Shown piece after piece: positions 4,585 to 55,464 of a stretch of DNA of 64,000 nt. The stretch lies in the NCBI RefSeq assembly GCF_030684315.1, contig NC_081384.1:31396935-31460934 (forward strand), written 5' to 3'. Below the pieces are notes generated by a model. The model was not told the origin of the DNA. It made no database searches and worked only from the letters and a program-made list of their open reading frames with translations. Numbering within the stretch: position 1 is the stretch's first letter; each line of letters starts with the position of its first letter. The DNA comes from Stegostoma tigrinum. Its lineage: Eukaryota. Position numbers and translations under genes: made by a program.

Positions 4585-4675
4585 CTGCCCAAGCTGCCAC
4601 TGTCTATTGGAGGAATAATGAGTGAGGTGTGGGCATACCATTCAAAAAATGAAATACAGTAGAATGTCTCAGTGG

Positions 4676-25503: not shown

Positions 25504-25594
25504 GCTGCACCGAGATAGCGGCGAAACTCTGACCGGAAGTAACTGATCACGACTGGATCTGCTTCCAACTCCCAAAACAGTCCCTTTTTCACTG

Positions 25595-25721
25595 ATAATG
25601 GGAACTGCAGATGCTGGAGAATCCAAGACAATAAAATGTGAGGCTGGATGAACACAGCAGGCCCAGCAGCGTCTCAGGAGCACAAAAGCTGACGTTTCGG
25701 ACCTAGACCCTTCATCAGAGC
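25595..25721 (-). mobile_element. Short Penelope-terminal fragment in the exon-1A 5' UTR (also copy 6, ~49620-49747)
   Basis: Matches the PLE terminus; absent at the equivalent site of copy 4 (~33815) and copy 2. Confidence 0.85.
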
Positions 25722-25829
25722 AGAAGCGGTTTCCTTCAGTGTCGAGTCCTGTGCGACTGTCTGAGTATATCTGCATGTCTGACAGAGCGAAGTCGGCCTG
25801 AGCTGGGTGCTGTGACCGCCTGAGCGGCC

Positions 25830-25975
25830 GGTGTATATAGGAGGCACTGGCGAGGTGTGGCCATGACATTCGAAAAGTGAAACCAGCTTCCGGGAGTTTT
25901 CAATGATCAGAGGAGAGCAAGTGTGTGTGCTCCCTGTCTGACGGAAGGAATCTGAAAGCTGAAGATTCCTGAAGG
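25830..25975 (-). promoter_or_regulatory. Exon-1A promoter: TATA box, ATF/Jun-like half site, IRF site, kB-like site (also ~17655-17800, 33930-34070, 49858-50000)
   Basis: TATATA at ~25834-25839; TGACATTCGAAAAGTGAAA at 25864-25882; GGGAGTTTTC at 25892-25901. Confidence 0.7.
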
Positions 25976-27496: not shown

Positions 27497-27628
27497 CATT
27501 TTGTGCAGTTTGCTCAGAGTCTCTGTGTTGAGAACTTGCTGTAACTGCAGCCTCTCACAGCCCCGACTCAGGCTCCCGGACACCAACCCCAGCACCATCC
27601 AAAATCTCCAAACCGTCGCCAGACACAT
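27497..27628 (-). CDS. Distal exon 1B of IFN copy 3
   Basis: 132 bp, MCLATVWRFWMVLGLVSGSLSRGCERLQLQQVLNTETLSKLHKM, GTGAGT donor. Confidence 0.85.
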
Positions 27629-31432: not shown

Positions 31433-34400
31433 TCAATTTCTTCTGTTGACTTGTGCCATTATGAAATGCAACTGTTGTAAACGGGCTCTGGTCTCATCAC
31501 GAATTATTTCCCAGGAACATTCACTAAATTTCTAAAAAGTAAGATATTCAAGTAAGTGCATTTGAAAATGAACAAATTAAATGTTGCCATGATTTACACA
31601 GTTAGTTATCAATTCTCATACCTTGTGTTTGAGAAACTTTTCCAGGTTCCTGAAGTAATGCTGAATGGCAGCATTTCTCTTCAGTTTGTGGTCAGATCCT
31701 GATTTCCTCAGGCAGTCTTGCAACTCTCTGAGCTGTTGATCGAGGATAAGACGAAAATTTTCAACCTTGTCCCAGGCCCAAGTGACTGAACCCAGGTTCA
31801 TGCTGTAGATCTTGTTGATGTGGTGCAGGGTTTGATGGATAATCGCAGTCCTTTCCTGAGTCTGAACAAAACACACAAGGTTAGAAGAGACGACATTATT
31901 TCCGTTCGAGGTAGTAAAATGTGCGGATGGATGAGCACAGCAGGCCCAGCAGCATCTCAGGAGCACAAAAGCTGACGTTTCGGGCCTAGACCCTTCATCA
32001 GAGAGGGGTTGGGGTGTAGGTGCTGGAATAAATTTGAGATGTTGCTGGGCCTGCTGTGTTCATCCAGCCTCACATTTTGTTATCTTGGATTCTCCAGCAT
32101 CCGCAGTTCCCATTATCACTGATACAATTATTTCCGTTCGTTTTGGGCTCATATTTAATTCAATAAACAAACAGCAAATAACAGTTAATTGTTCAAATCA
32201 AATATTATCACATCAATGGAAAATGAACAATGCGAGTCTTTAAATCAATGATTAAGATGCAGGTATAAAGGGTTTATTCAGCAGAGGAATTGGGCATGAC
32301 AAGTTAGAGTTTTCAGCAGCCTCGAATTGTGCTGATAAAAGTGGAATGGAAAAGGTTCCAAACGATGAATATCCAGTTCCTCAGACAACAAGAAACAGGC
32401 TCAATCAAGTCGGAGAACTAACAAGCTAAATAGGGGTAATTGGAATGTGTGCCGATTAATTAGTGTGTAACACAAGAAGGAAGCTAAACATGTTTTTGAG
32501 AAGTATTAATAAAAGAAAAGCTGGCTGGTAAGGGAGCAAAATATATGATCCCTCCTCTGTTAGCAAGGGTATCACTGAAGACTGAAACATTAATTTGAAT
32601 TTACTTGCTTTCGAGAACAAAAGTGTTAAACGTGAGAGTAAAGTGGCAAGTTGATGATAAACTCAGTAGGAAGTAAATAGACAAGGAGAAAGTCATCAAG
32701 AATTAACAGCGAATAGAATGAGAATGCTACTTGCTCTTTTATGAATATATTCTGTGTTTACTTTTGCAAAGTAGAAATTCGTGTAAAATCATGCTCAAAG
32801 GAGCGAGAAAATAATAAACATATCCTGTGTGGTGAAGAATGTTGATGGTTCGGAACTTGGATGTAACGTGGAAAGTGCAGCGATAGCGAGAAAGATCCTG
32901 TGAAGCCTGAAAACAGGGGCCCTTTCGCTTTCAGCCCGAACTTTCGAGAGCAGGATGGGGATTTGTTCAGTGAGAGGGTTGAGTTTTAAGCAGGCAAAGT
33001 GATTCTCAGTGACAGCCCTGTTCAACGTCAGTTGGGGCAGCCGAATGGTAAACGACTAATTCACAAAACAGTGGAGAGTGCTGCAGTGATTTTTGTCAAT
33101 TCACTTCAGCTGAAATGTGACAAAAAAATGGACAGATGTTGACAACGCTAAAACCAAACGAAGGTACCTTGAGAGCAGTACTGACAAAGCATGAACTTGT
33201 TCACAGTGTGCCAGTCTCATGCTTTTACTGAGACGGGTTGCGGCGATTTACACAACGGACGGAAATCATTGCGGTTCAACCTCCAACGATCTGATCGTGT
33301 CGCTAATCTCACACATACATTCTCTAAAGTCTCAGTCTGAATAAAATGACTCACCTCAAAACCGTCGGAAAGTTTCACCAGATCCAAGGGCTTAGTTTTC
33401 AGTGACAGCCTCTGCCTTATGCAATGTCGGGGGAAATGACCTCCCTGAGAGGAGAAAACAGTCCCGATTACAATCAGTCCCACAAAACTGAGATGCTGGA
33501 GAAACACCGAACGGTAATTGCACAAAATGAATATCTATTTCTCCCTCAACCGACATTCAACAGCGAACACACCCACTGAGACCCCGATCAGTTGACACTC
33601 ACCATTTCATGCAGTTTGCGCAAGGTCTCTGTGTTGAGAACTTGCAGCCTCTCACAGCCCAGGCTCAGGCTCCCTGGACCCCAAGACCAGCATCACCCAG
33701 AGTCTCCAAATTCTCGCCAGAGCCATGCTGCACCGAGATAGCGGCGAAACTCTGACCGGAAGAAACTGATCACGACTGGATCTGCTTCCAACTCCCAAAA
33801 CAGTCCCTTTTTCACTGAATGAGAAGCTGTTTCCTTCAGTGTCGAGTCCTTTGCAACAGTCTGAGTATATCTGCATGTCTGACAGATCGAGGTCGGCCTG
33901 AGCTGGGTGCTGTGACCGCCTGAGCGGCCGGTGTATATAGGTGGCACTGGCGAGGTGTGGCCATGACATTCGAAAAGTGAAACCAGCTTCCGGGAGTTTT
34001 CAATGATCAGAGGAGAGCAAGTGTGTGTGCTCCCTGTCTGACGGAAGGAATCTGAAAGCTGGAGATTCCTGAAGGAGCGAGTGGAAAATCTCTGACAGAA
34101 AATAACGAGTGTTCGAGACAAGCTCAAAGATCCGACAATTCCTTCCAAAATCATTTAAAGCATTATTGGAAAACCGAATACTTTCAATTAAAACGGATAT
34201 ACGGGCATTATTGGAGCAATGGGTTAGATTGCTGAATTATATTTCTTCAATCAAAACGACAAACAACATTCAGACGATGCGTAAATTTGAAAAAAAGAAC
34301 TCATCTCTCGCCTCCTCTGCAACCTTTCAAAGACTGAACCACAGCTTTGTCGTTCAAGGTCTCTCTGCTCGACGGACCGATCTGGCTGGGACTGCATTCC

Positions 34401-35712
34401 GTTGCTCCCATTCTAATCAAACTCACTGTAGCCTGAGAATGATCACATCTCTTCACACTCCAACCTGCTCACCCACTCTCACTGTCAGCTGACCCCAATG
34501 ACCTGCACTTAGTCCCTGATAGCAAAGTGTAGAGCAGGCCAACACAGAAGGTTCATCCAGCTCCACACTGTTCAATCTCGGATTCTCAAGCATCTGCAGT
34601 TTCTTTTGAGTCTGCCCCAAGTCCCCCTCTACTTATCTCCGTGCTCATCCCGACTGGACAAAATACAAATTGCAGCCTTAGATTCCCAGCGTGGCGAGGA
34701 CCGAATGCTCTGTCCCTCCGGACATCTCCCTGAAGACTCCAATTGTACTGCATTTTCACTCGGTATATTCATCAGCCACAATCATTTCCGTTAACTGCGC
34801 ATCGAGAGACTGGAGTAAATGTTTTTGTATTCCGAAACAAAAACTGTCTTCCTTGTCGCTCACACCAGCCGGACCAAATTTATCCCCTCTTAATGACAAC
34901 CTTCTGAACCAGACCCAGGCAATGCGCCCCGGGTTTTATATTTGACCCCGAGGTGAACTTATGATGCTTACCTGAATCATCATCGTCCTCCTGTTTGGAG
35001 TAAGCTATATCTCAGACTTCAGCATTGCCCCTTGTTTCAGATTCCGCGAAAACATGCAACTCTACCTTCCCTTCTGCCCTGAATAGGCCAAGGTCACGGC
35101 TCTGTGGCTGCGACGCCATTCGGCCATACTCCCAAACACCTTTGCCCTGCCCTGACATGCACTAGAACACAGCTACCTCCACACCCCATTCCCGTTTTGA
35201 ATGTACACCTCTGTCCCCAGACATAGTGGAACACCTCACTCGTTTCCGTCAAGCTCCCTTCCTCCTCTGTTCAACTCCCGCTGATATACGCCGAGCCGGG
35301 ACCAACAATTCCACGTCAATCAATTTCAGGCATTATTCTGGTGACACCTCCTGGCCATGCTCCCAATGCAGCACACGGGAAATGCACTGCGCCTCTCCTT
35401 CAACAAGATGACCAGCTGTACACACCACACGAGATGTGCTCTGATCGATTCCAGTACAATCGAAAAAACCGCACAACTTCAGTATTGTTATATGTTTTGT
35501 CTTTACGTGTCAACAATTACCGACTCTCGTACTCTAACATACAAACGTTCGGATCTCGATTTGGGGCAGCTGACACTCACCATTTTGTGCAGTTTGCTCA
35601 GAGTCACTGTGTCGAGAACTTGCTGTAACTGCAGCCTCTCACAGCCCAGACTCAGGCTCCCGGACACCAACCCCAGCACCATCCAAAATCTCCAAACCGT
35701 CGCCAGACACAT
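31433..35712 (-). CDS. Type I interferon copy 4: exon 4 31433-31531, exon 3 31622-31861 and exon 2 33355-33444 intact; exon 1A 33603-33726 frameshifted; exon 1B 35581-35712 intact
   Basis: Exon 1A is 124 bp (9-bp deletion and a +1 insertion, giving MALARIWRLWVMLVLGSREPEPGL*). Joining 1B to exons 2-4 gives an open 186-aa IFN; that splice is inferred. Confidence 0.75.
31909..32126. mobile_element. Inverted pair of Penelope-terminal fragments in intron 2 (copies 4-8; absent from copy 3)
   Basis: Flanked by attatttccgttcg at 31895-31908 and 32127-32140; empty site near 23900-23915. Confidence 0.85.
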
Positions 35713-38700
35713 GTTGTACCGAGACAGAAGGTAGCACCGAGGTGGAAGATGAGAAAGCGGTCAGTGTGAAGTCCGAGCGGATTGTGACCCGGGAGCGACC
35801 GCCTGTGCTGCCGAGTGCTGTGAGTGTGAGCCTGGGCTCTGCTGGTTGCTCTCACCGGCACTGCCATGCTGGCGGCTTTAAAGGGGCACATTACATTCCA
35901 AAAGTGAAAACTGCTCCCAGGATTTTTGGAGCGCCTGGAGCAGGAGTGTGTGCTGTTGCTTTCTGTGGTAAGGAATCGAAAAACTGGAGATTCCCGAAGC
36001 TGCGGCTGGAAAATCCCGGGTCGAAAATCGCAACCAGCGCTCGATTTGCAGCTGAATGTTGAGTGTGTTCAGATGATCGGGCACTGAGCTGGTGCAGGGG
36101 GAGGCTCTGTACTTGGCTGGTGGGATTGGGGACTGGGTCGGGATATGTACTTGGGGCTGGATGTCCTAATCCGGATTATAGAGACCCCGTCCGCGGAAAT
36201 CCCCGGTGTCACGGCGCTAGACGCGTTCCCATTTTCCAGGTTGGAGATGACAGGGAGCCCGGGTCACAGGCCTGGCTCACCGGCTGCTGGCGACTGTCTC
36301 CGCTCACATTCACCTGGCCCAGAATCCGCTCCCTCACTGGAGCAAGGTTCCCACTTCCAGCTCGGATTCCGGAAATATTTTCAGGATCTCTATCGAATCA
36401 CCAGGATCTGATCCGACTCTGAAAGTGAACCCTCTCCCTTTCCTTTCATCGCTTCTTTCTGCTCTCTCTCTCCCGGGAAAGTGTCTTTGTCGGTTTCTCT
36501 CTGCAAATGTACCTTTCGTCTGTTTTCTCAAAAGCGAAAGTGCCGCAGGGAAAGTGACGCGTTTTGTCATTTCCGAAAGGGAGAGGAGTTTGGAAACACA
36601 GCGGGTCAGACTGAGAGGGGGCAGACAAGGAACATGTGGGAAAGTATTTGTGATATTCCGGAACATGTTGGTTCAGGGGCAAATGTCTCCAAATCACTTT
36701 TACTTGGAACTACCACCCACTCTGACAGAGCAGGTGAACTATTTAAATGCTTGAAATGTTCATTTTTATAATTAAGTCTTGCTGTTTGTAGCTGGAACAG
36801 AAACTGCTTTTACCCGAAATAGAATTTGGCCGTTGATTTTAAACTGTTGCCAACGAGAATTCGCAGAAGACTGTTCCTCTTTAAATTACAATGATACTTA
36901 GCGCTCAACATTTGCCAATCACAAAATTTCTTTGCAACCGCTTTCCTACACGCATGGAACTGTCCTCATAGCCAAACACTCCAGGGTCGTCGTTGACACA
37001 TTCGCCAAGGCCTGCAAACTTCAGCAAAGCTAATGTCTGCATCCTGAGAAGGACCAGTGTGACATGCGAGACAAAGTCTGCTTCAAAAGGCTACATTTAT
37101 ATAACGCCGTTCATGACCAAAACACTCATCAAATCACCCTGCAAAAATAGACTCTTTTTAAAATGTATTCACTTTAAATGCAACAAATATGTTCTGCGTA
37201 TTGTGTTGCACAACCTCAGAGCATGTGGAATTCAGTAAAACGCAGATAACCTGGTTTTGTGATATTGATTGTGGTTCAGTTAGAGGAATGCCAGACGGAT
37301 CATTGGTGGGGCATAAAGTACTCAGTATTTCTGTTGGTAACTTGTTTGAAGGGGCGCACGACAAGCAAGAAATGCTAGCGCAGTCAGCGACAACGCCTTC
37401 CCAGGACTGAATGACAAAAATCAGAAAACCATCCAGAATGTGGAACGTCAATGGAAAGAGGAAGCTGATGAAAGGTGGGGATGTTTTGTTGTCAATACGC
37501 AGGATATTCGTGCAAACAAATTCCGAGTACTAGTTATATAATGTTTGGGCTCACTACTTAAACAAGATACACAATTATCAGACAAACTTCAGAGTAAATC
37601 CACTCGGTTAATTCTTGGAATATTAATGTTGGCTAATAAGAACAGATTTCGCGTCTGGGCCCACGTAAATTGCAGTTGTGCAGAATGAAATGGTGAAGTT
37701 ATTGAAACAACTAAGGATCTGGGGAGACTTAAGTGAATAAATGTTATGAAGGTATTTCGGCCTTTGTGAATGCGACAATAAGCTCATTGGTTGAATATGA
37801 GCAATCTCCACTTCAGATAGAGGTAAGGACAATTTCCTGGTCGAGGAGTCGATTGTCACTCCGTACGTCCACCCCTGACACCCACCGTGATATTCTTTAA
37901 AATATTCAGGTCTATAGTGAGATTTTTGATCGACAATCAAACCATAACTTTTTGTAGGGACTACAAACCTGAAAAGAACAGGAGGTGCTGATAATCTGAA
38001 ACATAAAACAGGAATTGTTGCAGAAAATCAGTCGTCTGACAGCAACTGTAGCAAGAAAGGAGAACTAACGTTATTATTCCAGTGACCTTCAGGAGCGAAC
38101 GGGAAAAGAAATCACTCTGCTTTCTCTCTGTAGGGTTTCTGCAGAAATGTTTGCTTCTGTCAGAGGTCTTTAGGGTATGAGCTGAAAATATGAGCGAAGG
38201 CCACAATCTGATCAGCTGCAACACAACATTCGAAACACTTGACGTGTTAAGTGTTCACCGTTTTACATGGTTATGCGATCAAATATTTCTTTAAAAAATG
38301 TATTTTTCGCAGCTGGAAGCTGTTATGATTCGTAGTCGCACTCCTCACTCTGATTATTGTTTTAAAAATTAAAGGTATCATTCTTCAACCAGTTTCTGCT
38401 TTTCCTATTTGTACACGGTGGCTGGTATCCTTACAACCATTATTCAAAATTCACATCAACTCTCCCATTCCATTTATCTCTCCGTGCAAACGGCTTTCCC
38501 CTTCACTGCTCGGCAACCAGTCTCATCTAGACATCGCGCAGTTTTTCCGCCGTCTCCGCTTCCCCACCGATAACTCTCCTCTCCACATATCTTCTCCTCT
38601 TTCCATCTTCTCTCCTCCTCCCCTCTCTCCCTATTTACTTCAGATTCCTCTCCCATCCCCCTTTTCTGATGAAGGGTCTAGGCCCGAAACGTCAGCTTTT

Positions 38701-39515
38701 GTGCTCCTACGATGCTGCTTGTCCTACTGTGTTCATCCAGTTCCACACTTTGTTATCACAAACTTTGTCCATTTTTGCTGCTGAACCGGAATACAAAATT
38801 CAAAGAAACAATCGTATCACAGAAAAAAATCAGAGCAGTGGAATTGAAAAAGGGTTGATACGTCTCAGGTGTAAGTGCAAATCTTGAACGAACATTGGAG
38901 ATGACGAGCACGAAGAGTAACAGACTGAAGACAGAAGTATCAGTAGCATTTATACTCAGTGTCAAAAGGTTAAATGAGAGAAGTCAAAAATAGACATCAA
39001 ACTGGTAAATGTGTAATGTTAAACCAAATTTATTTATATCAATGAGTTCGTTTTCAGTATAAAAATTTCCAGCTTAAAAAAAATTTACTTCCCAACGTAC
39101 AAATAAATAACAATAAATTAACATCTTTAAGTTAATTGACATATTACATAAATTTCAATAAATTAAGACGTCTCGTCAATAAATATGAATAAATTAGAGT
39201 AACTGAAATGGGTTTCAAGATTGGCAAATAGGAGTTCACAAGTGACAAGGTCAATGTGGTTCAGAAATCACTGAACTGGAAGTCTGATGTTCCAAAACAG
39301 ACTTCACACTCAGTGAAACTTCAACATTGCATCGGGGGAAAACATCGCAACAATACATGTCAGTGAATTAAAATAAATAGTTCTGGCAACACTCCCGTTG
39401 TTGCTCTTGATGCAAGTGAGAAAAAAAATTCTTGCAAACATATATAAACAGTTTCAATGAAAAAGTCTTTGAAATAAATATTCATTGTTCTGGTCCGCAG
39501 TGAATATGTTTTTTT

Positions 39516-41816
39516 TCAGTTTCTTCTGTTGACTTGTGCCATTATGAAATGCAGCTGTTGTAAACGGGCTCTGGTCTCATCACGAATTATTTCCCAGGAA
39601 CATTCACTGAATTTCTGAAAAGTAAGATATTCAAGTAAGTGCATTTGAAAATGAACAAATTAAATGTTGCCATGATTCACACAGTTAGTTATCAATTCTC
39701 ATACCTCGTGTTTGAGAAACTTTTCCAGGTTCCTGAAGTAATGTTGAATGGCAGCATTTCTCTTCAGTTTGTGGTCAGATCCTGATTTCCTCACGCAGTC
39801 TTGCAACTCTCTGAGCTGTTGATCGAGGAGAAGACGAAAATGTTCAACCTTGTCCCAGGCCCAAGTGACTGAACCCAGGTTCATGCTGTAGATCTTGTTG
39901 ATGTGGTGCAGGGTTTGATGGATAATCGCAGTCCTTTCCTGAGTCTGAACAAAACACACAAGGTTAGAAGAGACGACATTATTTCCGTTCGTGGTAATAA
40001 AACGTGAGGCTGGATGAACACAGCAGGCCGAGCAGCATCTCAGGAGCACAAAAGCCGACGTTTCGGGCCTAGACCCTTCATCAGAGAGGGGTTGGGGTGT
40101 GGGTTCTGGAATAAATTTGAGATGCAGCTGGGCCTGCTGTGTTCATCCAGCCTCACATTTTATTATCTTGGATTCTGCAGCATCCGCAGTTCCCATTATC
40201 ACTGATACAATTATTTCCGTTCGTTTTGGGTTAATATTCAATTCAATAAACAAACAGCAAATAACAGTTAATTGTTCAAATCCAATATTATCACATCAAT
40301 GGAAAATGAGCAATGCGAGTCTTTAAATCAATGATTAAGATGCAGGTATAAAGGGTTTATTCAGCAGAGGAAAAGGGCATGACAAGTTAGAGTTTTCTGC
40401 AGCCTCGAATTGTGCTGATAAAAGTGGAATGGAAAAGGTTCCAAACGATGAATATCCAGTTCCTCAGACAACAAGAAACAGGCTCAATCAAGTCGGAGAA
40501 CTAAACAGCTAAATAGGGGTAATTGGAATGTGTGCCGATTAATTAGTGTGTAACACAAGAAGGAAGCTAAACATGTTTTTGAGAAGTATTAATAAAAGAA
40601 AAGCTGGCTGGTAAGGGAGCAAAATATATGATCCCTTCTCTGTTAGCAAGGGTATCACTGAAGACTGAAACATTAATTTGAATTTACTTGCTTTCGAGAA
40701 CAAAAGTGTGAAACGTGAGAGTGAAGTGGCAAGTTGATGATAAACTCAGCAGGAAGTAACTCGACAAGGAGAAAGTCATCAAGAGTTAACAGCGAATAGA
40801 ATGTGAATGCTACTTGCCCTTTTATGAATATATTCTGAGTTTGCTTTTGCAAAGTAGAAATTCGTGTAAAATCATGCTCAAAGGAGCGAGAAAATAATAA
40901 ACATATCCTGTGTGGTGAAGAATGTTGATGGTTCGGAACTTGGATATAACGTGGAAAGTGCAGCGATAGCGAGAAAGATCCTGTGAAGCCTGAGAACAGG
41001 GGCCCTTTCGCTTCCAGCCCGAACTTTCGAGAGCAGGATGGGGATTTGTTCAGTGAGAGGGTTGAGTTTTAAGCAGGCAAAGTGATTCTCAGTGACAGCC
41101 CTGTTCAACGTCAGTTGGGGCAGCCGAATGGTAAACGACGAATTCACAAAACAGTGGAGAGTGCTGCAGTGATTTTTGTCAATTCACTTCGGCTGAAATG
41201 GGACTAAAAAATGGACAGATGTTGACAACGCTAAAACCAAACGAAGGTACCTTGAGAGCAGTACTGACAAAGCATGAACTTGTTCACAGTGTGCCAGTCT
41301 CATGCTTTTACTGAGACGGGTTGCGGCGATTTACACAACGGATGGAAATCATTGCGGTTCAACCTCCAACGATCTGATCGTGTCGCTAATCTCACACATA
41401 CATTCTCTAAAGTCTCAGTCTGAATAAAATGACTCACCTCAAATCCGTCGGAAAGTTTCACCAGATCCAAGGGCTTAGTTTTCAGTGACAGCCTCTGCCT
41501 TATGCAATGTCGGGGGAAATGACCTCCCTGAGAAGAGGAAACAGTCCCGGTTACATTCAGTCCCACAAACTGAAATGCTGGAGAAACACCGAACGGTAAT
41601 TGCACAAAATGAATATCTATTTCTCCCTCAACCGACATTGAACAGCGAGCAGACCAACTGGGACTCCGATCAGTTGACACTCACCATTTCGTACAGTTTG
41701 CTCAAGGTCTCTGTGTTGAGAACTTGCTGTAACTGCAGCCTCTCACAGCCCAGACTCAGGCTCCCGGACACCAAACCCAGCACCATCCAAAATCTCCAAA
41801 CCGTCGCCAGACACAT
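39516..41816 (-). CDS. Type I interferon copy 5, intact, with a single chimeric exon 1: 41685-41816, 41438-41527, 39705-39944, 39516-39614
   Basis: Exon 1 MCLATVWRFWMVLGLVSGSLSLGCERLQLQQVLNTETLSKLYEM has a B-type 5' part and an A-type 3' end and intron. All exons are open with GT-AG boundaries. Confidence 0.92.
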
Positions 41817-44233
41817 GTTGTACCGAGACAGAAGGTAGCACCGAGGTGGAAGATGAGAAAGCGGTCAGTGTGCAGTCGGAGCGGATTGTGACCCGGGAGC
41901 GACCGCCTGTGCTGCCGAGTGCTGTGAGTGTGAGCCTGGGCTCTGCTGGTTGCTCTCACCGGCACTGCCATGCTGGCGGCTTTAAAGGGGCACATTACAT
42001 TCCAAAAGTGAAAACTGCTCCCAGGATTTTTGGAGGACCTGGAGCAGGAGCGTGTGCTCTTTCTTTCTGAGGTAAGGAATCGAAAAGCTGGAGATTCCCG
42101 AAGCTGCGGCTGGAAAATCCCGGGTCGAAAATCGCAACCAGCGCTCGATTTGCAGCTGAATGTTGAGTGTGTTCAGATGATCGGGCACTGAGCTGGTGCA
42201 GGGGGAGGATCTGTACTTGGCTGGTGGGATTGGGTCTGGGTCGGGATATGTACTTGGGGCTGGATGTCCTAATCCGGATTATAGAGACCCCGTACGCGGA
42301 AATCCCCGGTGTCACGGCGCTAGTCGCGTTCCCATTTTCCAGGTTGGAGATGACAGGGAGCCCGGGTCACAGGCCTGGCTCACCGGCTGCTGGCGACTGT
42401 CTCCGCTCACATTCACCTGGCCCAGAATCCGCTCCCTCACTGGAGCAAGGTTCCCACTTCCAGCTCGGATTCCGGAAATATTTTCAGGATCTCTATCGAA
42501 TCACCAGGATCTGATCCGACTCTGAAAGTGATCCCTCTCCCTTTCCTTTCATCGCTTCTTTCTGCTCTCTCTCTTCCGGGAAAGTGTCCGTGTCGGTTTC
42601 TCTCTGCAAATGTACCTCGTGTCTGTTTTCTCAAAAGCGAAAGTGCCGCAGGGAAAGTGACGCGTTTTGTCATTTCCGAAAGGGAGTGGAGTTTGTCAAC
42701 ACAGCGGGTCTGACTGAGAGGGGGCAGGACAAGGAACATGTGGGAAAGTATTTGTGATATTCCGGAACATGTTGGTTCAGGGGCAAATGTCTCCAAATCA
42801 CTTTTACTTGGAACTACCACCCACTCTGACAGAGCAGGTGAACTATTTAAATGCTTGAAATGTTCACTTTTATAATTAAGTCTTGCTGTTTGTAGCTGGA
42901 ACAGAAACTGTTTTTACCCGAAATAGAATTTGGCCGTTGATTTTAAACTGTTGCCAACGAGAATTCGCACAAGATTGGTCCTCTTTAAATTACAATGATA
43001 CTTAGCGCTCAACATTTGCCAATCACAAAATTTCTTTGCAACCGCTTTCCTACACGCATGGAACTGTCCTCATAGCCAAACACTCCAGGGTCGTCGTTGA
43101 CACATTCGCCAAGGCCTGCAAGCTTCAACAAAGCGAATGTCTGCATCCTGAGCAGGACCAGTGTGACATGCGAGACAAAGTCTGCTTCAAAAGGCTACAT
43201 TTATATAACGCCGTTCATGACCAAAACACTCATCAAATCACCCTGCAAAAATAGACTCTTTTTAAAATGTATTCACTTTAAATGCAACAAATATGTTCTG
43301 CGTATTGTGTTGCACAACCTCAGAGCATGTGGAATTCAGTAAAACGCAGATAACCTGGTTTTGTGATATTGATTGTGGTTCAGTTAGAGGAATGCCAGAC
43401 GGATCATTGGTGGGGCATAAAGTACTCAGTATTTCTGTTGGTAACTTGTTTGAAGGGGCGCACGACAAGCAAGAAATGCTAGCGCAGTCAGCGACAACGC
43501 CTTCCCAGGACTGAATGACAAAAATCAGAAAACCATCCAGAATGTGGAACGTCAATGGAAAGAGGAAGCTGATGAAAGGTGGGGATGTTTTGTTGTCAAT
43601 ACGCAGGATATTCGTGCAAACAAATTCCGAGTACTAGTTATATAATGTTTGGGCTCACTACTTAAACAAGATACACAATTATCAGACAAACTTCAGAGTA
43701 AATCCACTCGGTTAATTCTTGGAATATTAATGTTGGCTAATAAGAACAGATTTCGCGTCTGGGCCCACGTAAATTGCAGTTGTGCAGAATGAAATGGTGA
43801 AGTTATTGAAACAACTAAGGATCTGGGGAGACTTAAGTGAATAAATGTTATGAAGGTATTTCGGCCTTTGTGAATGCGACTAAATGCTCATTGGTTGAAT
43901 ATGAGCAAACTCCACTTCAGATAGAGGTAAGGACAATTTCCTGGTCGAGGAGTCGATTGTCACTCCGTACGTCCACCCCTGACACCCACCGTGATATTCT
44001 TTAAAATATTCAGGTCTATAGTGAGATTTTTGATCGACAATCAAACCATAACTTTTTGTAGGGACTACAAACCTGAAAAGAACAGGAGGTGCTGATAATC
44101 TGAAACATAAAACAGGAATTGTTGCAGAAAATCAGTCGTCTGACAGCAACTGTAGCAAGAAAGGAGAACTAACGTTATTATTCCAGTGACCTTCAGGAGC
44201 GAACGGGAAAAGAAATGACTCTGCTTTCTCTCT

Positions 44234-45834
44234 GAGATAATGGGGACTGCAGATGCTGGAGATTCCAAGATAATAAAATGTGAGGCTGGATGAACACAGC
44301 AGGCCAAGCAGCATCTCAGGAGCACAAAAGCTGACGTTTCGGGCCTGGACCCTTCATCAGAGAGGGGGATGGGGAGAGGGAACTGGAATAAATAAGGAGA
44401 GAGGGGGAGGCGGACCGAAGATGGAGAGTAAAGAAGATAGGTGGAGAGAGTATAGGTGGGGAGGTAGGGAGGGGATAGGTCAGTCCAGGGAAGACGGACA
44501 GGTCAAGGAGGTGGGATGAGGTTAGTAGGTAGATGGGGGTGCGGCTTGGGGTGGGAGGAAGGGATGGGTAAGAGGAAGAACCGGTTAGGGAGGCAGAGAC
44601 AGGTTGGACTGGTTTTGGGATGCAGTGGGTGGGGGGGAAGAGCTGGGCTGGTTGTGTAGTGCAGTGGGGGGAGGGGACAAACTGGGCTGGTTTAGGGATG
44701 AGATAATGGGGACTGCAGATGCTGGAGATTCCAAGATAATAAAATGTGAGGCTGGATGAACACAGCAGGCCAAGCAGCATCTCAGGAGCACAAAAGCTGA
44801 CGTTTCGGGCCTAGACCCTTCATCAGAGAGGGGGATGGGGGGAGGGAACTGGAATAAATAGGGAGAGAGGGGGAGGTGGACCGAAGATGGAGAGTAAAGA
44901 AGATAGGTGGAGAGAGTGTAGGTGGGGAGGTAGGGAGGGGATAGGTCAGTCCAGGGAAGACGGACAGGTCAAGGAGGTGGGATGAGGTTAGAAGGTAGCG
45001 GGGGGTGCGGCTTGGGGTGGGAGGAAGGGATGGGTGAGAGGAAGAACCGGTTAGGGAGGCAGAGACAGGTTGGCCTGGTTTTGGGATGCAGTGGGTGGGG
45101 GGGAAGAGCTGGGCTGGTTGTGTGGTGCAGTGGGGGGAGGGGACGAACTGGGCTAGTTGAGGGATGCAGTAGGGGAAGGGGAGATTTTGAAACTGGTGAA
45201 GTCCACATTGATACCATATGGCTGCAGGGTTCCCAGGCGGAATATGAGTTGCTGTTCCTGCAACTCCACATTGATACCATATGGCTGCAGGATTCCCAGG
45301 CGGAATATGAGTTGCTGTTCCTGCATATTCCGCCTGGGAACCCTGCAGCCATATGGTATCAATGTGGACTTCACCAGTTTCAAAATCTCCCCTTTCCCTA
45401 CTGCATCCCTCAACCAGCCCAGTTCGTCCCCTCCCCCCACTGCACCACACAACCAGCCCAGATCTTCCCCCCCACCCACTGCATCCCAAAACCAGTCCAA
45501 CCTGTCTCTGCCTCCCTAACCGGTTCTTCCTCTCACCCATCCCTTCCTCCCACCCCAAGCCGCACCCCCCGCTACCTACTAACCTCATCCCACCTCCTTG
45601 ACCTGCCCGTCTTCCCTGGACTGACCTATCCCCTCCCTACCTCCCCACCTACACTCTCTCCACCTATCTTCTTTACTCTCCATCTTCGGTCCGCCTCCCC
45701 CTCTCTCCCTATTTATTCCAGTTCCCTCCCCCCATCCCCCTCTCTGATGAAGGGTCTAGGCCCGAAACGTCAGCTTTTGTGCTCCTGAGATGCTGCTTAG
45801 CCTGCTGTGTTCATCCAGCCTCACATTTTATTAT
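44234..45834. mobile_element. Composite Penelope-like insertion: tandem 3' ends plus an inverted copy
   Basis: Units 44234-44700 and 44700-45325, then an inverted arm 45326-45834. 15-bp direct repeat ctctgctttctctct at 44219-44233 and 45835-45849; empty sites at ~30032 and ~38114. Confidence 0.88.
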
Positions 45835-47232
45835 CTCTGCTTTCTCTCTATAGGGTTTCTGCAGAAATGTTTGTTTCTGTCAAAGGTCTTTAGGGTATGA
45901 GCTGAAAATATGAGCGAAGGCCACAATCTGATCAGCTGCAACACAACATTCGAAACACTTGACGTGTTAAGTGTTCACCGTTTTACATGGTTATGCGATC
46001 AAATATTTCTTTAAAAAATGTATCTATCGCAGCTGGAAGCTGTTATGATTCGTAGTCGCACTCCTCACTCTGATTATTGTTTTAAAAATTAAAGGTATCA
46101 TTCTTCAACCAGTTTCTGCTTTTCCTATTTGTACACGGTGGCTGGTATTCTTACAACCATTATTCAAAATTCACATCAACTCTCCCATTCCATTTATCTC
46201 TCCGTGCAAACGGCTTTCCCCTTCACTGCTCGGCAACCAGTCTCATCTGGACATCGCGCAGTTTTTCCGCCGTCTCCGCTTCCCCACCGATAACTCTCCT
46301 CTCCACCTATCTTCTCCTCTTTCCATCTTCTCTCCGCCTCCCCTCTCTCCCTATTAACTTCAGATTCCTCTCCCATCCCCCTTTTCTGATGAAGGGTCTA
46401 GGCCCGAAACGTCAGCTTTTGTGCTCCTAAGATGCTGCTTGTCCTACTGTGTTCATCCAGCTCCACACTTTGTTATCACAAACTTTGTCCATTTTTGCTG
46501 CTGAACCGGAATACAAAATTCAAAGAAACAATCGTATCACAGAAAAAATCAGAGCAGTGGAATTGAAAAAGGGTTGATACGTCTCAGGTGTAAGTGCAAA
46601 TCTTGAACGAACATTGGAGATGACGAGCACGAAGAGTAACAGACTGAAGACAGAAATATCAGTAGCATTTATACTCAGTGTCAAAAGGTTAAATGAGAGA
46701 AGTCAAAAATGGACATCAAACTAGTAAATGTGTAATGTTAAACCGAATTTATTTATATCAATGAGTTCGTTTTCAGTATAAAAATTTCCAGCTTAAAAAA
46801 AATTTACTTCCCAACGTACAAATAAATAACAATAAATTAGCATCTTTAAGTTAATTGACATATTACATAAATTTCAATAAATTAAGACGTCTCGTCAATA
46901 AATATGAATAAATTAGAGTAACTGAGATGGGTTTCAAGATTGGCAAGTCGGAGTTCACAAGTGACAAGGTCAATGTGGTTCAGAAATCACTGAACTGGAA
47001 GTCTGATGTTCCAAAACAGACTTCACACTCAGTGAAACTTCAACATTGCATCGGGAGAAAACATCGCAACAATACATGTCAGTGAATCAAAATAAATAGT
47101 TCTGGCAACACTCCCGTTGTTGCTCTTGATGCAAGTGAGAAAAAAAATTCTTACAAACATATATAAACAGTTTCAATGGAAAGTCTTTGAAATAAATATT
47201 CATTGTTCTGGTCTGCAGTGAGTATGTTTTTT

Positions 47233-49529
47233 TCAGTTTCTTCTGTTGACTTGTGCCATTATGAAATGCAACTGTTGTAAACGGGCTCTGGTCTCAGCAC
47301 GGATTATTTCCCAGGAACATTCACTGAATTTCTGAAAAGTAAGATATTCAAGTAAGTGCATTTGAAAATGAAAAAATTAAATGTTGCCATGATTTACACA
47401 GTTAGTTATCAATTCTCATACCTTGTGTTTGAGAAACTTTTCCAGGTTCCTGAAGTAATGCTGAATGGCAGCATTTCTCTTCAGTTTGTGGTCAGATCCT
47501 GATTTCCTCAGGCAGTCTTGCAACTCTCTGAGCTGTTGATCGAGGAGAAGACGAAAATGTTCAACCTTGTCCCAGGCCCAAGTGACTGAACCCAGGTTCA
47601 TGCTGTAGATCTTGTTGATGTGGTGCAGGGTTTGATGGATAATCGCAGTCCTTTCCTGAATCTGAACAAAACACACAAGGTTAGAAGAGACGACATTATT
47701 TCCGTTCGTGGTAATAAAACGTGCGGCTGGATGAACACAGCAGGCCGAGCAGCATCTCAGGAGCACAAAAGCCGACGTTTCGGGCCTAGACCCTTCATCA
47801 GAGAGGGGTTGGGGTGTGGGTTCTGGAATAAATTTGAGATGCAGCTGGGCCTGCTGTGTTCATCCAGCCTCACATTTTATTATCTTGGATTCTGCAGCAT
47901 CCGCAGTTCCCATTATCACTAATACAATTATTTCCGTTCGTTTTGGGTTAATATTCAATTCAATAAACAAACAGCAAATAACAGTTAATTGTTCAAATCC
48001 AATATTATCACATCAATGGAAAATGAGCAATGCGAGTCTTTAAATCAATGATTAAGATGCAGGTATAAAGGGTTTATTCAGCAGAGGAAAAGGGCATGAC
48101 AAGTTAGAGTTTTCTGCAGCCTCGAATTGTGCTGATAAAAGTGGAATGGAAAAGGTTCCAAACGATGAATATCCAGTTCCTCAGACAACAAGAAACAGGC
48201 TCAATCAAGTCGGAGAACTAACAAGCTAAATAGGGGTAATTGGAATGTGTGCCGATTAATTAGTGTGTAACACAAGAAGGAAGCTAAACATGTTTTTGAG
48301 AAGTATTAATAAAAGAAAAGCTGGCTGGTAAGGGAGCAAAATATATGATCCCTCCTCTGTTAGCAAGGGTATCACTGAAGACTGAAACATTAATTTGAAT
48401 TTACTTGCTTTAGAGAACAACAGTGTGAAACGTGAGTAAAGTGGCAAGTTGATGATAAACTCAGCAGGAAGTAACTCGACAAGGAGAAAGTCATCAAGAG
48501 TTAACAGCGAATAGAATGTGAATGCTACTTGCCCTTTTTTGAATATATTCTGAGTTTGCTTTTGCAAAGTAGAAATTCGTGTAAAATCATGCTCAAAGGA
48601 GCGAGAAAATAATAAACATATCCTGTGTGGTGAAGAATGTTGATGGTTCGGAACTTGGATGTAACGTGGAAAGTGCAGCGATAGCGAGAAAGATCCTGTG
48701 AAGCCTGAGAACAGGGGCCCTTTCGCTTTCAGCCCGAACTTTCGAGAGCAGGATGGGGATTTGTTCAGTGAGAGGGTTGAGTTTTAAGCAGGCAAAGTGA
48801 TTCTCAGTGACAGCCCTGTTCAACGTCAGTTGCGGCAGCCGAATGGTAAACGACTAATTCACAAAACAGTGGAGAGTGCTGCAGTGATTTTTGTCAATTC
48901 ACTTCAGCTGAAATGGGACTAAAATGGACAGATGTTGACAACGCTAAAACCAAACGAAGGTACCTTGAGAGCAGTACTGACAAAGCATGAACTTGTTCAC
49001 AGTGTGCCAGTCTCATGCTTTTACTGAGACGGGTTGCGGCGATTTACACAACGGATGGAAATCATTGCGGTTCAACCTCCAACGATCTGATCGTGTCGCT
49101 AATCTCACACATACATTCTCTAAAGTCTCAGTCTGAATAAAATGACTCACCTCAAATCCGTCGGAAAGTTTCACCAGATCCAAGGGCTTAGTTTTCAGTG
49201 ACAGCCTCTGCCTTATGCAATGTCGGGGGAAATGACCTCCCTGAGAAGAGGAAACAGTCCCGGTTACATTCAGTCCCACAAACTGAAATGCTGGAGAAAC
49301 ACCGAACGGTAATTGCACAAAATGAATATCTATTTCTCCCTCAACCGACATTCAACAGCGAACAGACCAACTGGGACTCCGATCAGTTGACACTCACCAT
49401 TTCGTACAGTTTGCTCAAGGTCTCTGTGTTGAGAACTTGCTGTAACTGCAGCCTCTCACAGCCCAGGCTCAGGCTCCCTGACCCCAAGAGCAGCACCACC
49501 CAGAGTCTCCAAATTCTCGCCAGAGCCAT
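47233..49529 (-). CDS. Type I interferon copy 6, intact: exon 1A 49398-49529, exon 2 49151-49240, exon 3 47422-47661, exon 4 47233-47331
   Basis: Open 186-aa frame MALARIWRLW...KFSECSWEIIRAETRARLQQLHFIMAQVNRRN*, canonical splice sites. Confidence 0.93.
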
Positions 49530-51528
49530 GCTGCACCGAGATAGCGGCGAAACTCTGACCAGAAGAATCCGATCACGACTGGATCTGCTTCCAACTCCCA
49601 AAACAGTCCCTTTTTCACTGATAATGGGAACTGCAGATGCTGGAGAATCCAAGACATTAAAATGTGAGGCTGGATGAACACAGCAGGCCCAGCAGCATCT
49701 CAGGAGCACAAAAGCTGACGTTTCGGACCTAGACCCTTCATCAGAGCAGAAGCGGTTTCCTTCAGTGTCGAGTCCTGTGCGACTGTCTGAGTATATCTGC
49801 ATGTCTGACAGAGCGAAGTCGGCCTGAGCTGGGTGCTGTGACCGCCTGAGCGGCCGGTGTATATAGGAGGCACTGGCGAGGTGTGGCCATGACATTCGAA
49901 AAGTGAAACCAGCTTCCGGGAGTTTTCAATGATCAGAGGAGAGCAAGTGTGTGTGCTCCCTGTCTGACGGAAGGAATCTGAAAGCTGAAGATTCCTGAAG
50001 GAGCGAGTGGAAGATCCCTGACAGAAAATAACAACGAGTGTTCGAGACAAGCTCAAAGATCCGACAATTCCTTCCAAAATCATTTAAAGCATTATTGGAA
50101 AACCGAATACTTTCTCTCAATTAAAACGGATATACGGGCATTATTGGAGCAATGGGTTAGATTGCTGAATTATATTTCTTCAATCAACACGACAAACAAC
50201 ATTCAGACGATGCGTAAATTTGAAAAAAGAACTCATCTCTCGCCTCCTCTGCAACCTTTCAAAGACTGAACCACAGCTTCGTCGTTCAAGGTCTCTCTGC
50301 TCGACGGACCGATCTGGCTGGGACTGCATTCCGTTGCTCCCATTCTGATCAAACTCATTGTAGCCTGAGAATGATCACATCTCTTCACACTCCAAACTGC
50401 TCACACACTCTCACTGTCAGCTGACTCCAACGGAAGCTGCCCTTAGTCCCTGATAACAAAGTGTGGAGCTGGATGAACTCAGCAGGCCAATACAGAAGGT
50501 TCATCCAGCTCTACACTGTTCAATCTCGGATTCTCAAGCATCTGCAGTTTCTTTTGTCTCTGCCCCAAGTCCCCCTGTACTAATCTCCGTGCTCATCCCT
50601 ACTGGACAAAATACAAATTGTAGCCTTAGATTCCAAGCGTTGCGAGGACCGAAAGCTCTGTCCCTCGGGACATCTCCCTGAAGACTCCAATTGTACTGCA
50701 TTTTCACTCGGTATATTCATCAGCCACAATCATTTCCGTTAACTGCGCATCGAGAGACTGGAGTAAATGTTTTTGTTTTACGAAGCAAAAACTGTCTTCC
50801 TTGTCACTCACTCCAGCCAAACCAAATTTCACCCCTCTCAATGACAACCTTCTGAACCAGACCCAGGCAATGCGCCCCGTGTTTTATATTTGACCCCGAG
50901 GTGAACTTATGATGCTTACCTGAATCATCATCGTCCTCCTGTTTGGAGTAAGCTATATCTCAGACTTAAGCATTGCCCCCTGTTTCAGATTCCGCGAAAA
51001 CATGCAACTCTACCTTCCCTTCTGCCCTGTATAGGCCAAGGTCACGGCTCTGTGGCTGCGACGCCATTCGGCCATACTCCCAAACACCTTTGCCCTGCCC
51101 TGACATGCACTAGAACACAGCTACCTCCACACCTCATTCCCGTTTTGAATGTACACCTCTGTCCCCAGACATAGTGGAACACCTCACTCGTTTCCGTCAA
51201 GTTCCCTTCCTCCTCTGTTCAACTCCCGCTGATATGTGCCGAGCCGGGACCAACAATTCCACGTCAATCAATTTCAGGCATTATTCTGGTGACACCTCCT
51301 GGCCATGCTCCCAATGCAGCACACGGGAAATGCACTGCGCCTCTCCTTCAACAAGATGACCAGCTGTACACACCACACGAGATGTGCTCTGATCGATTCC
51401 AGTACAATCGAAAAAACCGCACAACTTCAGTATTGTTATATGTTTTGTCTTTGCGTGTCAACAGTTTCCGACTCTCGTACTCTAACATACAAACGTTCGG
51501 ATCTGTATTTGGGGCAGCTGACACTCAC

Positions 51529-51660
51529 CATTTCGTGCAGTTTGCTCAGAGTCTCTGTGTTGAGAACTTGCTGTAACTGCAGCCTCTCACAGCCCAGACT
51601 CAGGCTCCCGGACACCAAACCCAGCACCATCCAAAATCTCCAAACCGTCGCCAGACACAT
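51529..51660 (-). CDS. Distal exon 1B of IFN copy 6
   Basis: 132 bp, MCLATVWRFWMVLGLVSGSLSLGCERLQLQQVLNTETLSKLHEM, GTGAGT donor. Confidence 0.85.
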
Positions 51661-54600: not shown

Positions 54601-55464
54601 CCCATCCCCCTTTTCTGATGAAGGGTCTAGGCCCGAAACGTCAGCTTTTGTGCTCCTACGATGCTGCTTGTCCTACTGTGTTCATCCAGTTCCACACTTT
54701 GTTATCACAAACTTTGTCCATTTTTGCTGCTGAACCGGAATACAAAATTCAAAGAAACAATCGTATCACAGAAAAAAATCAGAGCAGTGGAATTGAAAAA
54801 GGGTTGATACGTCTCAGGTGTAAGTGCAAATCTTGAACGAACATTGGAGATGACGAGCACGAAGAGTAACAGACTGAAGACAGAAGTATCAGTAGCATTT
54901 ATACTCAGTGTCAAAAGGTTAAATGAGAGAAGTCAAAAATAGACATCAAACTGGTAAATGTGTAATGTTAAACCAAATTTATTTATATCAATGAGTTCGT
55001 TTTCAGTATAAAAATTTCCAGCTTAAAAAAAATTTACTTCCCAACGTACAAATAAATAACAATAAATTAACATCTTTAAGTTAATTGACATATTACATAA
55101 ATTTCAATAAATTAAGACGTCTCGTCAATAAATATGAATAAATTAGAGTAACTGAAATGGGTTTCAAGATTGGCAAATAGGAGTTCACAAGTGACAAGGT
55201 CAATGTGGTTCAGAAATCACTGAACTGGAAGTCTGATGTTCCAAAACAGACTTCACACTCAGTGAAACTTCAACATTGCATCGGGGGAAAACATCGCAAC
55301 AATACATGTCAGTGAATTAAAATAAATAGTTCTGGCAACACTCCCGTTGTTGCTCTTGATGCAAGTGAGAAAAAAAATTCTTGCAAACATATATAAACAG
55401 TTTCAATGAAAAAGTCTTTGAAATAAATATTCATTGTTCTGGTCCGCAGTGAATATGTTTTTTT

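Follow-up and report, generated by a model that had tools for sequence, protein, structure and literature searches.

Apparent loss of promoter A by recombination between twin first exons in duplicated type I interferon genes of the zebra shark

The event that sets apart copies 5 and 7 of the zebra shark (Stegostoma tigrinum) type I interferon array is, as read from the sequence, a loss of promoter A in which no new promoter was gained by the coding body. The array was analyzed in a stretch of 64,000 nucleotides (the window) and is made up of four-exon type I interferon genes with two promoters each, every promoter having its own first exon (1B distal, 1A proximal; Table 1). In the layout of copies 5 and 7, coding exons of 132, 90, 240, and 99 nt are separated by GT-AG introns and the frame is open. 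Proteins identical to those of copies 5 and 7 score 85.6 and 85.7 bits against the interferon alpha/beta domain (PF00143; cut-off 26.8), and the top matches of the chimeric-copy proteins in a PDB search are interferons. The mature chain contains the four conserved cysteines (Cys 24, 52, 124, and 159), of which Cys24 aligns with the first residues of solved interferon chains, and a hydrophobic N terminus, a putative signal peptide, is encoded by exon 1A and by the chimera. Exact matches of the copy 5, copy 7, and copy 6 proteins were found (S. tigrinum RefSeq models XP_059494818.1 and XP_059494806.1, and XP_059494779.1, respectively); RefSeq models copy 6 from 1A and copies 3 and 4 from 1B, and one A/B protein pair (P0011, P0013) has different first exons and identical bodies. 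Copies 1 and 2 are pseudogenes, copy 1 being divergent. Passages on cartilaginous-fish type I interferon describe the same 4 exon/3 intron layout (stated in PMC5332411), four mature cysteines, and a tandem cluster (PMC5332411, PMC6640115), whereas the twin first exons and the chimera are absent from those passages.

Exon 1 of copies 5 and 7 had been annotated as chimeric, and mapping of diagnostic sites over the aligned exon-1 copies revealed a single switch in both. Diagnostic sites were those separating exon 1A of copies 3 and 6 from exon 1B of copies 2, 3, 4, and 6 at offsets −20 to +150 (six of the nine non-chimeric exon-1 copies; 1B of copy 1 and 1A of copies 2 and 4 were excluded because of indels). 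In both chimeric copies, the allele is B-type at 20/20 sites 5′ of a shared tract (up to 41754 in copy 5 and 57703 in copy 7) and A-type at 6/6 sites 3′ of it (from 41706 and 57655), all 26 being consistent with one B-to-A switch inside the shared identity. At 47 bp, the tract is the longest exact match between exons 1A and 1B of copy 6 (next longest, 18 bp). It coincides with the crossover previously placed at ∼41708–41751, the true interval being 1 to 2 bp wider at each end, and the same junction is indeed present at 57634–57765. The reading of the intron and the exon 3′ end in copy 5 as A-type also stands, and the KHE end of exon 3 is private to copies 5 and 7 among copies 3 to 8. Since 47 of ∼160 homologous bases lie in the tract, a crossover there is unsurprising and does not identify the pathway. 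The chimera alters one residue of the exon-1 protein sequence. No reciprocal exon (A-type 5′, B-type 3′) was found among 11 aligned exon-1 copies; XP_059494617.1 has a MAL start followed by B-like residues, but no coding sequence for it lies in the window.

Table 1. Positions in the window of the exons, promoters, and rearrangements discussed.
Feature	Position	Strand	Description
Copy 1 promoter-A core remnant	4587..4654	-	directly 5′ of N gap 4448-4584
Copy 1 exon 1B and promoter B	8388..9444	-	95-96% identical to other copies; gene body about 67%
Copy 2 twin first exons	17322..19266	-	1A 17322-17454 frameshifted; 1B 19135-19266 open; further frameshift in exon 3; outgroup for A+B state
Copy 3 twin first exons	25372..27628	-	1A 25372-25503, 1B 27497-27628; both open
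Copy 4 twin first exons	33603..35712	-	1A 33603-33726 frameshifted; 1B 35581-35712 open
Tandem duplication, period about 15,950 bp	36630..64000	.	unit 1 36630-52579; unit 2 from 52580 past window end; copies 5+6 and 7+8
Copy 5 exon 4	39516..39614	-	99 nt including stop
Copy 5 exon 3	39705..39944	-	240 nt, KHE end
Copy 5 exon 2	41438..41527	-	90 nt
Copy 5 intron 1	41528..41684	-	A-type, 157 bp; copy 6 equivalent from 1B to exon 2, 2,288 bp
Copy 5 chimeric exon 1	41685..41816	-	132 nt, ATG to GTGAGT donor; B-type signal-peptide part, A-type mature part
Copy 5 crossover interval	41707..41753	-	47-bp tract, 1A = 1B in copy 6
Copy 5 promoter B and 5′ UTR block	41817..42749	-	kappaB-like 42298-42307, 42112-42121, 42090-42099; IRF-like core 42004-42013; TATA-like 41981-41986
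Fold-back repeat insertion, 1.6 kb	44234..45834	.	with 15-bp target-site duplication; found in copy 5/7 lineage alone; second copy at 60184-61784
Copy 6 exon 1A	49398..49529	-	intact; model of A parent
Copy 6 segment without counterpart in copies 5 and 7	49467..51597	-	2,131 bp: 3′ end of 1B, 1B intron, promoter A, 5′ part of 1A; exact ends ambiguous inside 47-bp tract
Copy 6 exon 1B	51529..51660	-	intact; model of B parent
Copy 7 chimeric exon 1	57634..57765	-	132 nt, ATG to GTGAGT donor; junction as in copy 5, interval 57656-57702
Copy 7 promoter B	57766..58699	-	identical to copy 6 promoter B; likely converted after duplication

Copies with both modules have a 1B-to-1A distance of 2,131 bp (copy 6), 2,125 bp (copy 3), 1,986 bp (copy 4), or 1,812 bp (copy 2). 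The ∼2.1 kb between 1A and 1B is gone from copies 5 and 7, as the initial annotation had stated, and copy 6 without its 2,131 bp reproduces both, aligning to copy 5 with 99.07% identity and 6 gap columns and to copy 7 with 99.51% identity and 5 gap columns. The intervening DNA is cleanly lost at the junction, with no filler. Long matches to the 1B–1A spacer are confined to copies 2, 3, 4, and 6, the copy 5 and copy 7 units matching 34–40-bp repeat fragments only, and the upstream flank of copy 5 is 98 to 99% identical to the flanks of the A+B copies. The suggested homologous deletion between the twin exons, leaving promoter B as the only promoter of an intact 186-aa interferon, is supported.

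Deletion was correctly assigned to both copies, which trace to one event that was subsequently duplicated, not to two. Independent deletions are ruled out by the 15,950-bp duplication, by a copy 5 plus copy 7 clade (99/96), and by intron 1–2 identities (99.7 between copies 5 and 7, 99.1 between copies 5 and 6, and 96.8 between copy 5 and copies 3 and 4). The clade lies within the A+B copies, with A+B copy 2 outside, and its placement relative to copies 4 and 6 is tentative (82/81). Copies 5 and 7, which a Ser or Thr variant tells apart, show 28 differences. The 933 bp of the B block contain 10 of them, against an expectation of 1.6 (Poisson P 7e-6), and copies 6 and 7 have the same promoter B, consistent with a conversion tract; this tract could be a consensus-polishing error. 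Overwriting of the copy 5 promoter by a donor from copies 1 to 4, instead of copy 7 by copy 6 or 8, is less likely because the copy 5 allele at 42209 exists only in copies 5–7. The duplication may be allelic instead of tandem, and we regard it as a minority possibility, though the foremost of the alternatives, that the assembler set the two alleles of a single locus in tandem as copies 5 and 7 (likewise 6 and 8), which would change copy number only and leave the deletion mechanism unaffected. The duplicated units outside the B block differ at 18 of 10,468 bases with no indel, a level within reach of allelic variation, and an N gap elsewhere in the window marks the locus as hard to assemble. 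However, the left edge (36,623/52,572), where a copy-6-type B is joined to a copy-4-type flank, is sharp, as unequal crossover would give, and RefSeq has copies 5 and 7 as separate proteins on one contig, although from the same assembly and hence not independently.

The description of the event as a promoter swap was not upheld. By sequence comparison, the coding body did not gain a promoter previously absent: the A+B parents carry, behind the same promoter, an open exon 1B with its own ATG, the same donor as 1A, and an open 186-aa frame. Because 1B is open with a donor and serves as first exon in the RefSeq models of copies 3 and 4, B would already have been available and the event would have removed A. 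A true swap, in which 1B is a silent or non-splicing orphan in A+B genes and the deletion newly couples B to the interferon body, appears unlikely. The RefSeq model of copy 6 with 1A is in keeping with such an orphan, as are a whale shark gene that shares the body lineage and is modeled with an A-type exon 1 and the long 1B intron with promoter A inside it. In contrast, 7/7 copies with a sequenced 5′ end have an open 1B followed by a GTGAGT donor while 1A is frameshifted in 2/4 (copies 2 and 4), the open body of copy 4 can be supplied by 1B alone, the RefSeq models of copies 3 and 4 and the P0011/P0013 pair include 1B-derived forms, and AATAAA/ATTAAA is absent from the B-to-A segment of copies 3, 4, and 6 (copy 2 has three AATAAA). 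We infer that promoters A and B are both active. Promoter A may be fully functional, as 1A of copies 3 and 6 is open and RefSeq uses it for copy 6. All four sequenced A modules are damaged, those of copies 2 and 4 by frameshifts and those of copies 3 and 6 by a 123-bp repeat in the 5′ UTR. The proposed list of states, A+B (3, 6), B by mutation (4), and B by deletion (5, 7), is right that B is kept in every copy and that copy 4 exon 1A is mutated (a frameshift, 124 nt), but is incomplete, as copy 2 exon 1A is also frameshifted and copy 1 has a promoter-A remnant.

Promoter B is 96 to 100% identical between copies, as compared to 67 to 99% for gene bodies. Copies 2 and 6 are 95 to 99% identical inside B, 62 to 73% on the gene side, and mostly 78 to 89% upstream (range 41–95). 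The homogenized tract is a 1.08-kb promoter-plus-exon-1 block that ends at the splice donor and includes the pseudogenes, while exons 2 to 4 stay in old lineages. Across old body lineages, Stegostoma proteins are 97.6% identical in exon 1 versus 61.3% in the body (Chiloscyllium, 97.7 versus 63.4), and exon 1 of the same lineage is 71 to 93% identical across species. At the protein level, exon 1 groups by species, as seen in a comparison of exon 1 with the body in five species and among the 79 of 102 shark proteins used (the 186-aa models); the exon-1 tree, of 44 columns, has no starred branch. Paralogs are closer than orthologs in exon 1 and not in the body, the pattern of concerted evolution. 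Among these 79 models, isoforms that pair one body with two first exons occur in Stegostoma only, an argument against extending the twin exons to every shark. Purifying selection instead of conversion, an explanation that concerns this context and not the deletion, is a doubtful source of the uniformity: B is rich in putative binding sites and exon 1 residues 24 to 44 are conserved in every shark examined, yet the pseudogenes, copies 1 and 2, also have a B that is 96 to 97% identical, and species-specific signal-peptide variants are common to old body lineages.

The two modules are related, promoters A and B being homologous (72% identity at the core) and exon 1B being a 44-aa homolog of 1A. 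The window contains 21 strict kappaB-like matches, every one of them within promoter B, with three putative sites in each of 7/7 B modules and none in 4/4 A modules; the kappaB-like, IRF-like, and TATA-like sites of copy 5 promoter B (Table 1) we take to be putative motifs. Tentatively, the carpet-shark interferon may combine a distal, beta-like NF-kappaB-plus-IRF promoter with a proximal, alpha-like IRF-centered promoter, each with its own signal-peptide exon, B being a cassette homogenized by conversion across lineages that predate the zebra shark/bamboo shark split and A being shed copy by copy. Such shedding would comprise two frameshifts, the 5′ UTR insertion, and the copy 5/7 deletion.

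Assembly collapse, in which a joining of the two similar exons would have discarded a 2.1-kb segment that the animal still has, is very improbable: the junction does lie within the longest exact repeat, as collapse predicts, and the cluster's eight members include no protein of a second S. tigrinum assembly, but a 47-bp repeat is far below the 8-kb, 97–99% repeats that the assembly resolved, and the junction occurs in two non-identical copies with common private alleles and a private 1.6-kb insertion. Sequence comparison also supports a two-promoter ancestral state and a derived single-exon form, the phylogeny, named as a possible refutation, nesting copies 5 and 7 inside the A+B copies. Copy 1 represents an older lineage (exon 3, 76% and 86% to XP_059494787.1 versus about 49% for copies 3 to 8). 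Its remnant matches copy 6 promoter A at 50/65 positions with a score of 57, as compared to 36 for the top of 200 resampled controls and 26 against promoter B; the space from core to exon 2 is 333 bp versus 538 to 559 bp in other copies, and exon 1A was not seen in copy 1. The remnant rules out copy 1 as an extra B-only gene or B-only donor. The B module might descend from the remains of an upstream copy-1-type gene, a reading neither favored nor rejected by the comparison, in which the copy 1 1B-to-gap segment showed no similarity to the copy 6 and copy 2 spacers beyond the ends. Least probable of all is an ancestral B-only single-exon form with A+B arising later by internal duplication, since, although the protein models of other sharks have one exon-1 type per species (maximum within-species difference 5 residues versus 11 in Stegostoma) and the homology of the A and B cores implies a single-promoter ancestor at some time, copies 5 and 7 combine A and B sequences that had diverged beforehand and are nested among A+B copies, copy 2 is laid out in the same way and its spacer is 70% identical, and copy 1 keeps its A remnant.

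We consider the following scenario highly probable as a whole. The ancestral gene would have had two tandem promoter-plus-signal-peptide-exon modules, distal B and proximal A, an anatomy evident in the A+B copies, each presumably active and spliced to the shared exon 2. In one copy-6-like gene, the direct-repeat exons 1B and 1A would have recombined by unequal crossover or single-strand annealing, resolving in the 47-bp tract and deleting the 2,131 bp missing from the sequence. The product would be an intact B-only gene whose first intron is 157 bp long and whose protein joins the signal peptide of B to the mature N terminus of A. This gene would later have been copied by the 15,950-bp duplication to give copies 5 and 7, after which promoter B of copy 7 was probably overwritten by a copy-6/8 donor. 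The deletion would be one by-product of recurrent ectopic exchange with its center at promoter B and exon 1, as well as one among several lesions striking module A; its predicted consequence is loss of A-driven transcripts with the protein nearly unaltered.

Hybrids or deletions by crossover in a shared tract are known from hemoglobin Lepore, CYP11B1/CYP11B2, and Alu-Alu deletions. As in Lepore-type hybrids, the 5′ part of one repeat is fused in frame to the 3′ part of the other with the intervening DNA deleted. In contrast, the repeats that recombined here belong to a single gene, as its twin first exons, so that a promoter would be lost and no foreign promoter gained, unlike in promoter-swap chimeras of the CYP11B1/CYP11B2 type, where the coding body acquires a promoter that it lacked; the protein differs by one exon-1 residue. 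Zebrafish IFNphi1 and salmon IFNa (teleost group I), as described in passages of PMC5127012 and PMC5332411, likewise have a distal and a proximal transcription start in one intron-containing gene, the long transcript lacking a signal peptide and its protein being intracellular; the shark modules instead are homologous duplicates with a full putative signal-peptide exon each, 1B encoding a hydrophobic N terminus. Gene conversion in the primate IFN cluster and at the human delta/beta globin genes, where it affects the first exon and intron (passages of PMC3161012), is similarly 5′-limited, leaves paralogs more alike than orthologs, and is frequent in interferon clusters, whereas the shark tract spans 1.08 kb of promoter and exon 1, stops at the donor, and reaches pseudogenes. 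Tandem first exons spliced to common downstream exons are also found in the multiple-variable-first-exon clusters UGT1, GCNT2, and protocadherin (PMC1885805); unlike these, the shark gene has two first exons only, differing mainly in the signal peptide, and is tandemly repeated as a whole. The available passages of the whale shark genome paper (PMC8455134) contain nothing on twin exons or promoter deletion. In the literature searched, no published account was found of shark type I interferon genes having twin signal-peptide first exons or of homogenization limited to the promoter and exon 1. One study, reportedly titled on long transcripts of multi-exon IFN-beta homologs, may bear on novelty.

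The deletion itself is a textbook kind of event that barely alters the protein, and its context is more interesting. Copies 5 and 7 offer a clean, dated case of an alternative promoter removed from an immune gene, and the deletion exposes an unusual two-promoter design with an outer promoter B that is kept alike between copies. Whether interferons evolve in concert or by birth and death is debated (passages of PMC6640115). Homogenization of the promoter and exon 1 bears on that debate, both modes being possible in one gene, exon by exon, and shark interferon trees built from whole proteins blend two histories. If promoter B is indeed a homogenized cassette and A is shed copy by copy, regulation would evolve in concert and the receptor-binding body by birth and death, and copies 5 and 7 would be natural promoter-A knockouts.

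The window holds eight type I interferon copies in tandem, all on the minus strand and the eighth truncated at the window end. Coding exons of 132, 90, 240, and 99 nt in each copy agree with the four-exon organization that excerpts of PMC5332411 give for type I interferon of cartilaginous fish. Proteins identical to those of copies 5 and 7 match Pfam PF00143, and the spliced products of copies 3 and 4 (from 1B, the distal first exon), 6 (from 1A, its proximal twin), 5, and 7 are exactly five Stegostoma tigrinum RefSeq proteins. Copy 1 is broken in exons 2 to 4 and copy 2 in exon 3, where a one-base frameshift (241 nt) leaves it broken with either first exon. Exon 3 of copy 6 begins with ATT rather than the ACT of copies 3 to 5, 7, and 8, which creates an additional AG, six bases further in, as a possible alternative acceptor. 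Outside the window, two further interferons of Stegostoma that belong to older lineages, XP_059494617.1 and XP_059494787.1, have B-type first exons, the latter sharing a two-residue deletion with copy 1.

Alignment of the 11 exon-1 copies (four A, five B, and two mixed), with diagnostic sites defined by 3A and 6A against four B copies, bore out the chimeric first exon that the initial annotation had proposed for copies 5 and 7. Both carry the B allele at 20/20 sites through 41754/57703 and the A allele at 6/6 from 41706/57655, followed by an A-type intron. The ∼2.1 kb between 1A and 1B is likewise gone, as copy 6 without 2131 bp is 99.07% identical to copy 5 and 99.51% to copy 7 over ∼2470 bases. 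The intervening 47 bp are the longest exact match between copy 6 exons 1A and 1B, whose 5′ halves are alike at 49/63 bases and 3′ halves at 66/69. Recombination between 1B and 1A within this identity would account for the deletion; with 47 bp identical in ∼160 bp at 87%, single-strand annealing, homeologous template switching, and classical unequal crossover are equally plausible. The upstream flank of copy 5 is 98 to 99% identical to those of copies with both modules (A+B). The B parent was therefore itself an A+B unit, whether the same unit or a neighboring one.

Positions of features in the window (minus-strand genes)
Feature	Copy	Position
Chimeric exon 1	5	41685–41816
Chimeric exon 1	7	57634–57765
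Crossover interval	5	41707–41753
Crossover interval	7	57656–57702
B block	5	41817–42749
B block	7	57766–58699
Promoter B TTTAAA	5	41981–41986
TTTCGA at that site	1	8683
TTTCGA at that site	2	19436
1.6-kb insertion	5	44234–45834
1.6-kb insertion	7	60184–61784
Clustered differences	5	43100–43440
Clustered differences	7	59050–59390
∼123-bp repeat	3	25595–25722
∼123-bp repeat	6	49620–49746
N gap region	1	4448–4654
Retroelement	1	9440–11795
Sequence past retroelement	1	11795–11889
Exon 3 frameshift	2	14503–14504
Exon 3 start	6	47659–47661

In 7/7 copies whose 5′ end is sequenced, exon 1B has an open frame and a normal donor, and the RefSeq models of copies 3 and 4 start from it. The event thus appears to be a loss of promoter A, with no new promoter gained; the reported structure stands, but its reading as a promoter swap does not. 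Deletion shortened intron 1 from 2288 to 157 bp and kept the frame open. The crossover falls at about codons 22 to 37, near the presumed signal-peptide boundary (Gly23/Cys24), and the chimeric exon differs from 1B of copy 6 by one change, His42 to Tyr, and equals its 1A from residue 24 onward. In mode of origin and sequence hallmarks the chimera resembles a Lepore-type deletion hybrid; tested as a promoter-swap chimera, it fails.

The window repeats from ∼36,630 with a period of ∼15,950 bp, the units differing at 28 positions in 11.4 kb. Copies 5 and 7 are 99.7 to 99.9% identical in body and flank, form a clade (support 99/96), and alone share a 1.6-kb insertion with a 15-bp target-site duplication; their junction is a single event, not two. 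The duplication may be real or may be two alleles placed in tandem; in either case both sequences contain the junction, which argues against assembly collapse. The left edge of the duplication falls at the distal edge of the B block (promoter B and 5′ UTR). The insertion is a repeat lying 1.5 kb upstream of promoter B and made up of a pair of 466-bp units in direct orientation, a doublet of 63 bp, and an arm in inverted orientation. Four copy 5–copy 7 differences cluster upstream of B; copy 7 equals copy 3 at three, possibly through another small conversion.

An ancestral single-exon form, the alternative raised initially, is contradicted by two divergent copies. In copy 2 (∼80% identical in body), B likewise precedes A, and the spacer between them is 70% identical. 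Copy 1, a long branch of an older lineage with members in whale and bamboo sharks, was ruled out as B-only by a promoter-A core directly before its N gap (50/65 identical; score 57, control maximum 36). Together these make A+B ancestral in the array and the B-only state of copies 5 and 7 derived. The 137-base gap lies exactly at the expected exon 1A, between this core and a weak A-type intron remnant (40/54; score 34 versus 32; control level against 2A). In Hemiscyllium ocellatum XP_060704568.1 (349 aa), an N-terminal extension is translated promoter B (70–72% over 68 residues), followed by an out-of-frame exon-1 start and a second exon 1. This model could fuse two adjacent genes; the extension is probably a gene-model error revealing two exon-1 starts, which suggests a B-then-A layout there also. 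Among other sharks' protein models examined, no A/B-like pair was found.

The A and B cores are homologs, 72% identical over 160 bp, with an IRF-like element in common. Scored with a κB consensus, 21/21 strict putative κB-like sites in the 64 kb lie within the seven B promoters, three in each; that number is reached by 32/5000 resampled 600-bp controls, and the seven B copies are not independent. One looser site is retained in 2A, 3A, and 6A. Both promoters are presumably active. The A module may be dying, as 4/4 sequenced A modules are damaged; against this, 3A and 6A are open and RefSeq models copy 6 from 1A. Exon 1A is frameshifted in copies 2 and 4, and the A-module 5′ UTRs of copies 3 and 6 contain a 123-bp repeat. 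This short interspersed repeat, missing from copy 4, sits between the TATA-like box and the 1A ATG and adds upstream ATGs (two in copy 3 and four in copy 6 versus one in copy 4; the count starts at an arbitrary point 70 nt past the IRF core and leaves out an ATG at −155 in B). Pseudogenes 1 and 2 have TTTCGA where promoter B of copies 3 to 7 has the TATA-like TTTAAA, and 17 bp immediately downstream are missing from copy 2.

The 934-bp B block is uniform, at 96 to 100% identity over seven copies including both pseudogenes; copies 2 and 6 are 95 to 99% identical within it versus 62 to 73% on the gene side. It holds 10/28 copy 5–copy 7 differences (P = 7 × 10−6), and copy 7 equals copy 6 exactly across it. 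Conversion is the simplest explanation of that identity, with polishing error as a rival. Within species, exon 1 is 95 to 98% identical between old body lineages in 4/5 shark species (88.6% in whale shark), with bodies at 61 to 82%, and averages 89 to 98% for pairs that differ at 20 or more body positions in the seven species having such pairs. Nearest neighbors are conspecific for 17/23 exon-1 rows versus 12/23 bodies, a modest contrast; the exon-1 tree is weakly resolved. A retroelement breaks the distal edge of copy 1 promoter B; past it, identity is 89% with copy 6 and 73% with copy 2, which suggests an older, longer conversion tract.

Conversion limited to 5′ regions, and within interferon clusters, is already known from excerpts of PMC3161012. 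The shark genes resemble teleost dual-promoter interferons as outlined in parts of PMC5127012 and section 10 of PMC5332411, but each of the two shark modules seems to specify a signal peptide, so the defining feature given there is absent. No description of twin first exons in shark interferons was found in a full-text search that took in few subscription journals. Any role of selection is an inference. Taken by itself, the chimera is ordinary; the noteworthy part is a two-module gene with a homogenized B cassette.
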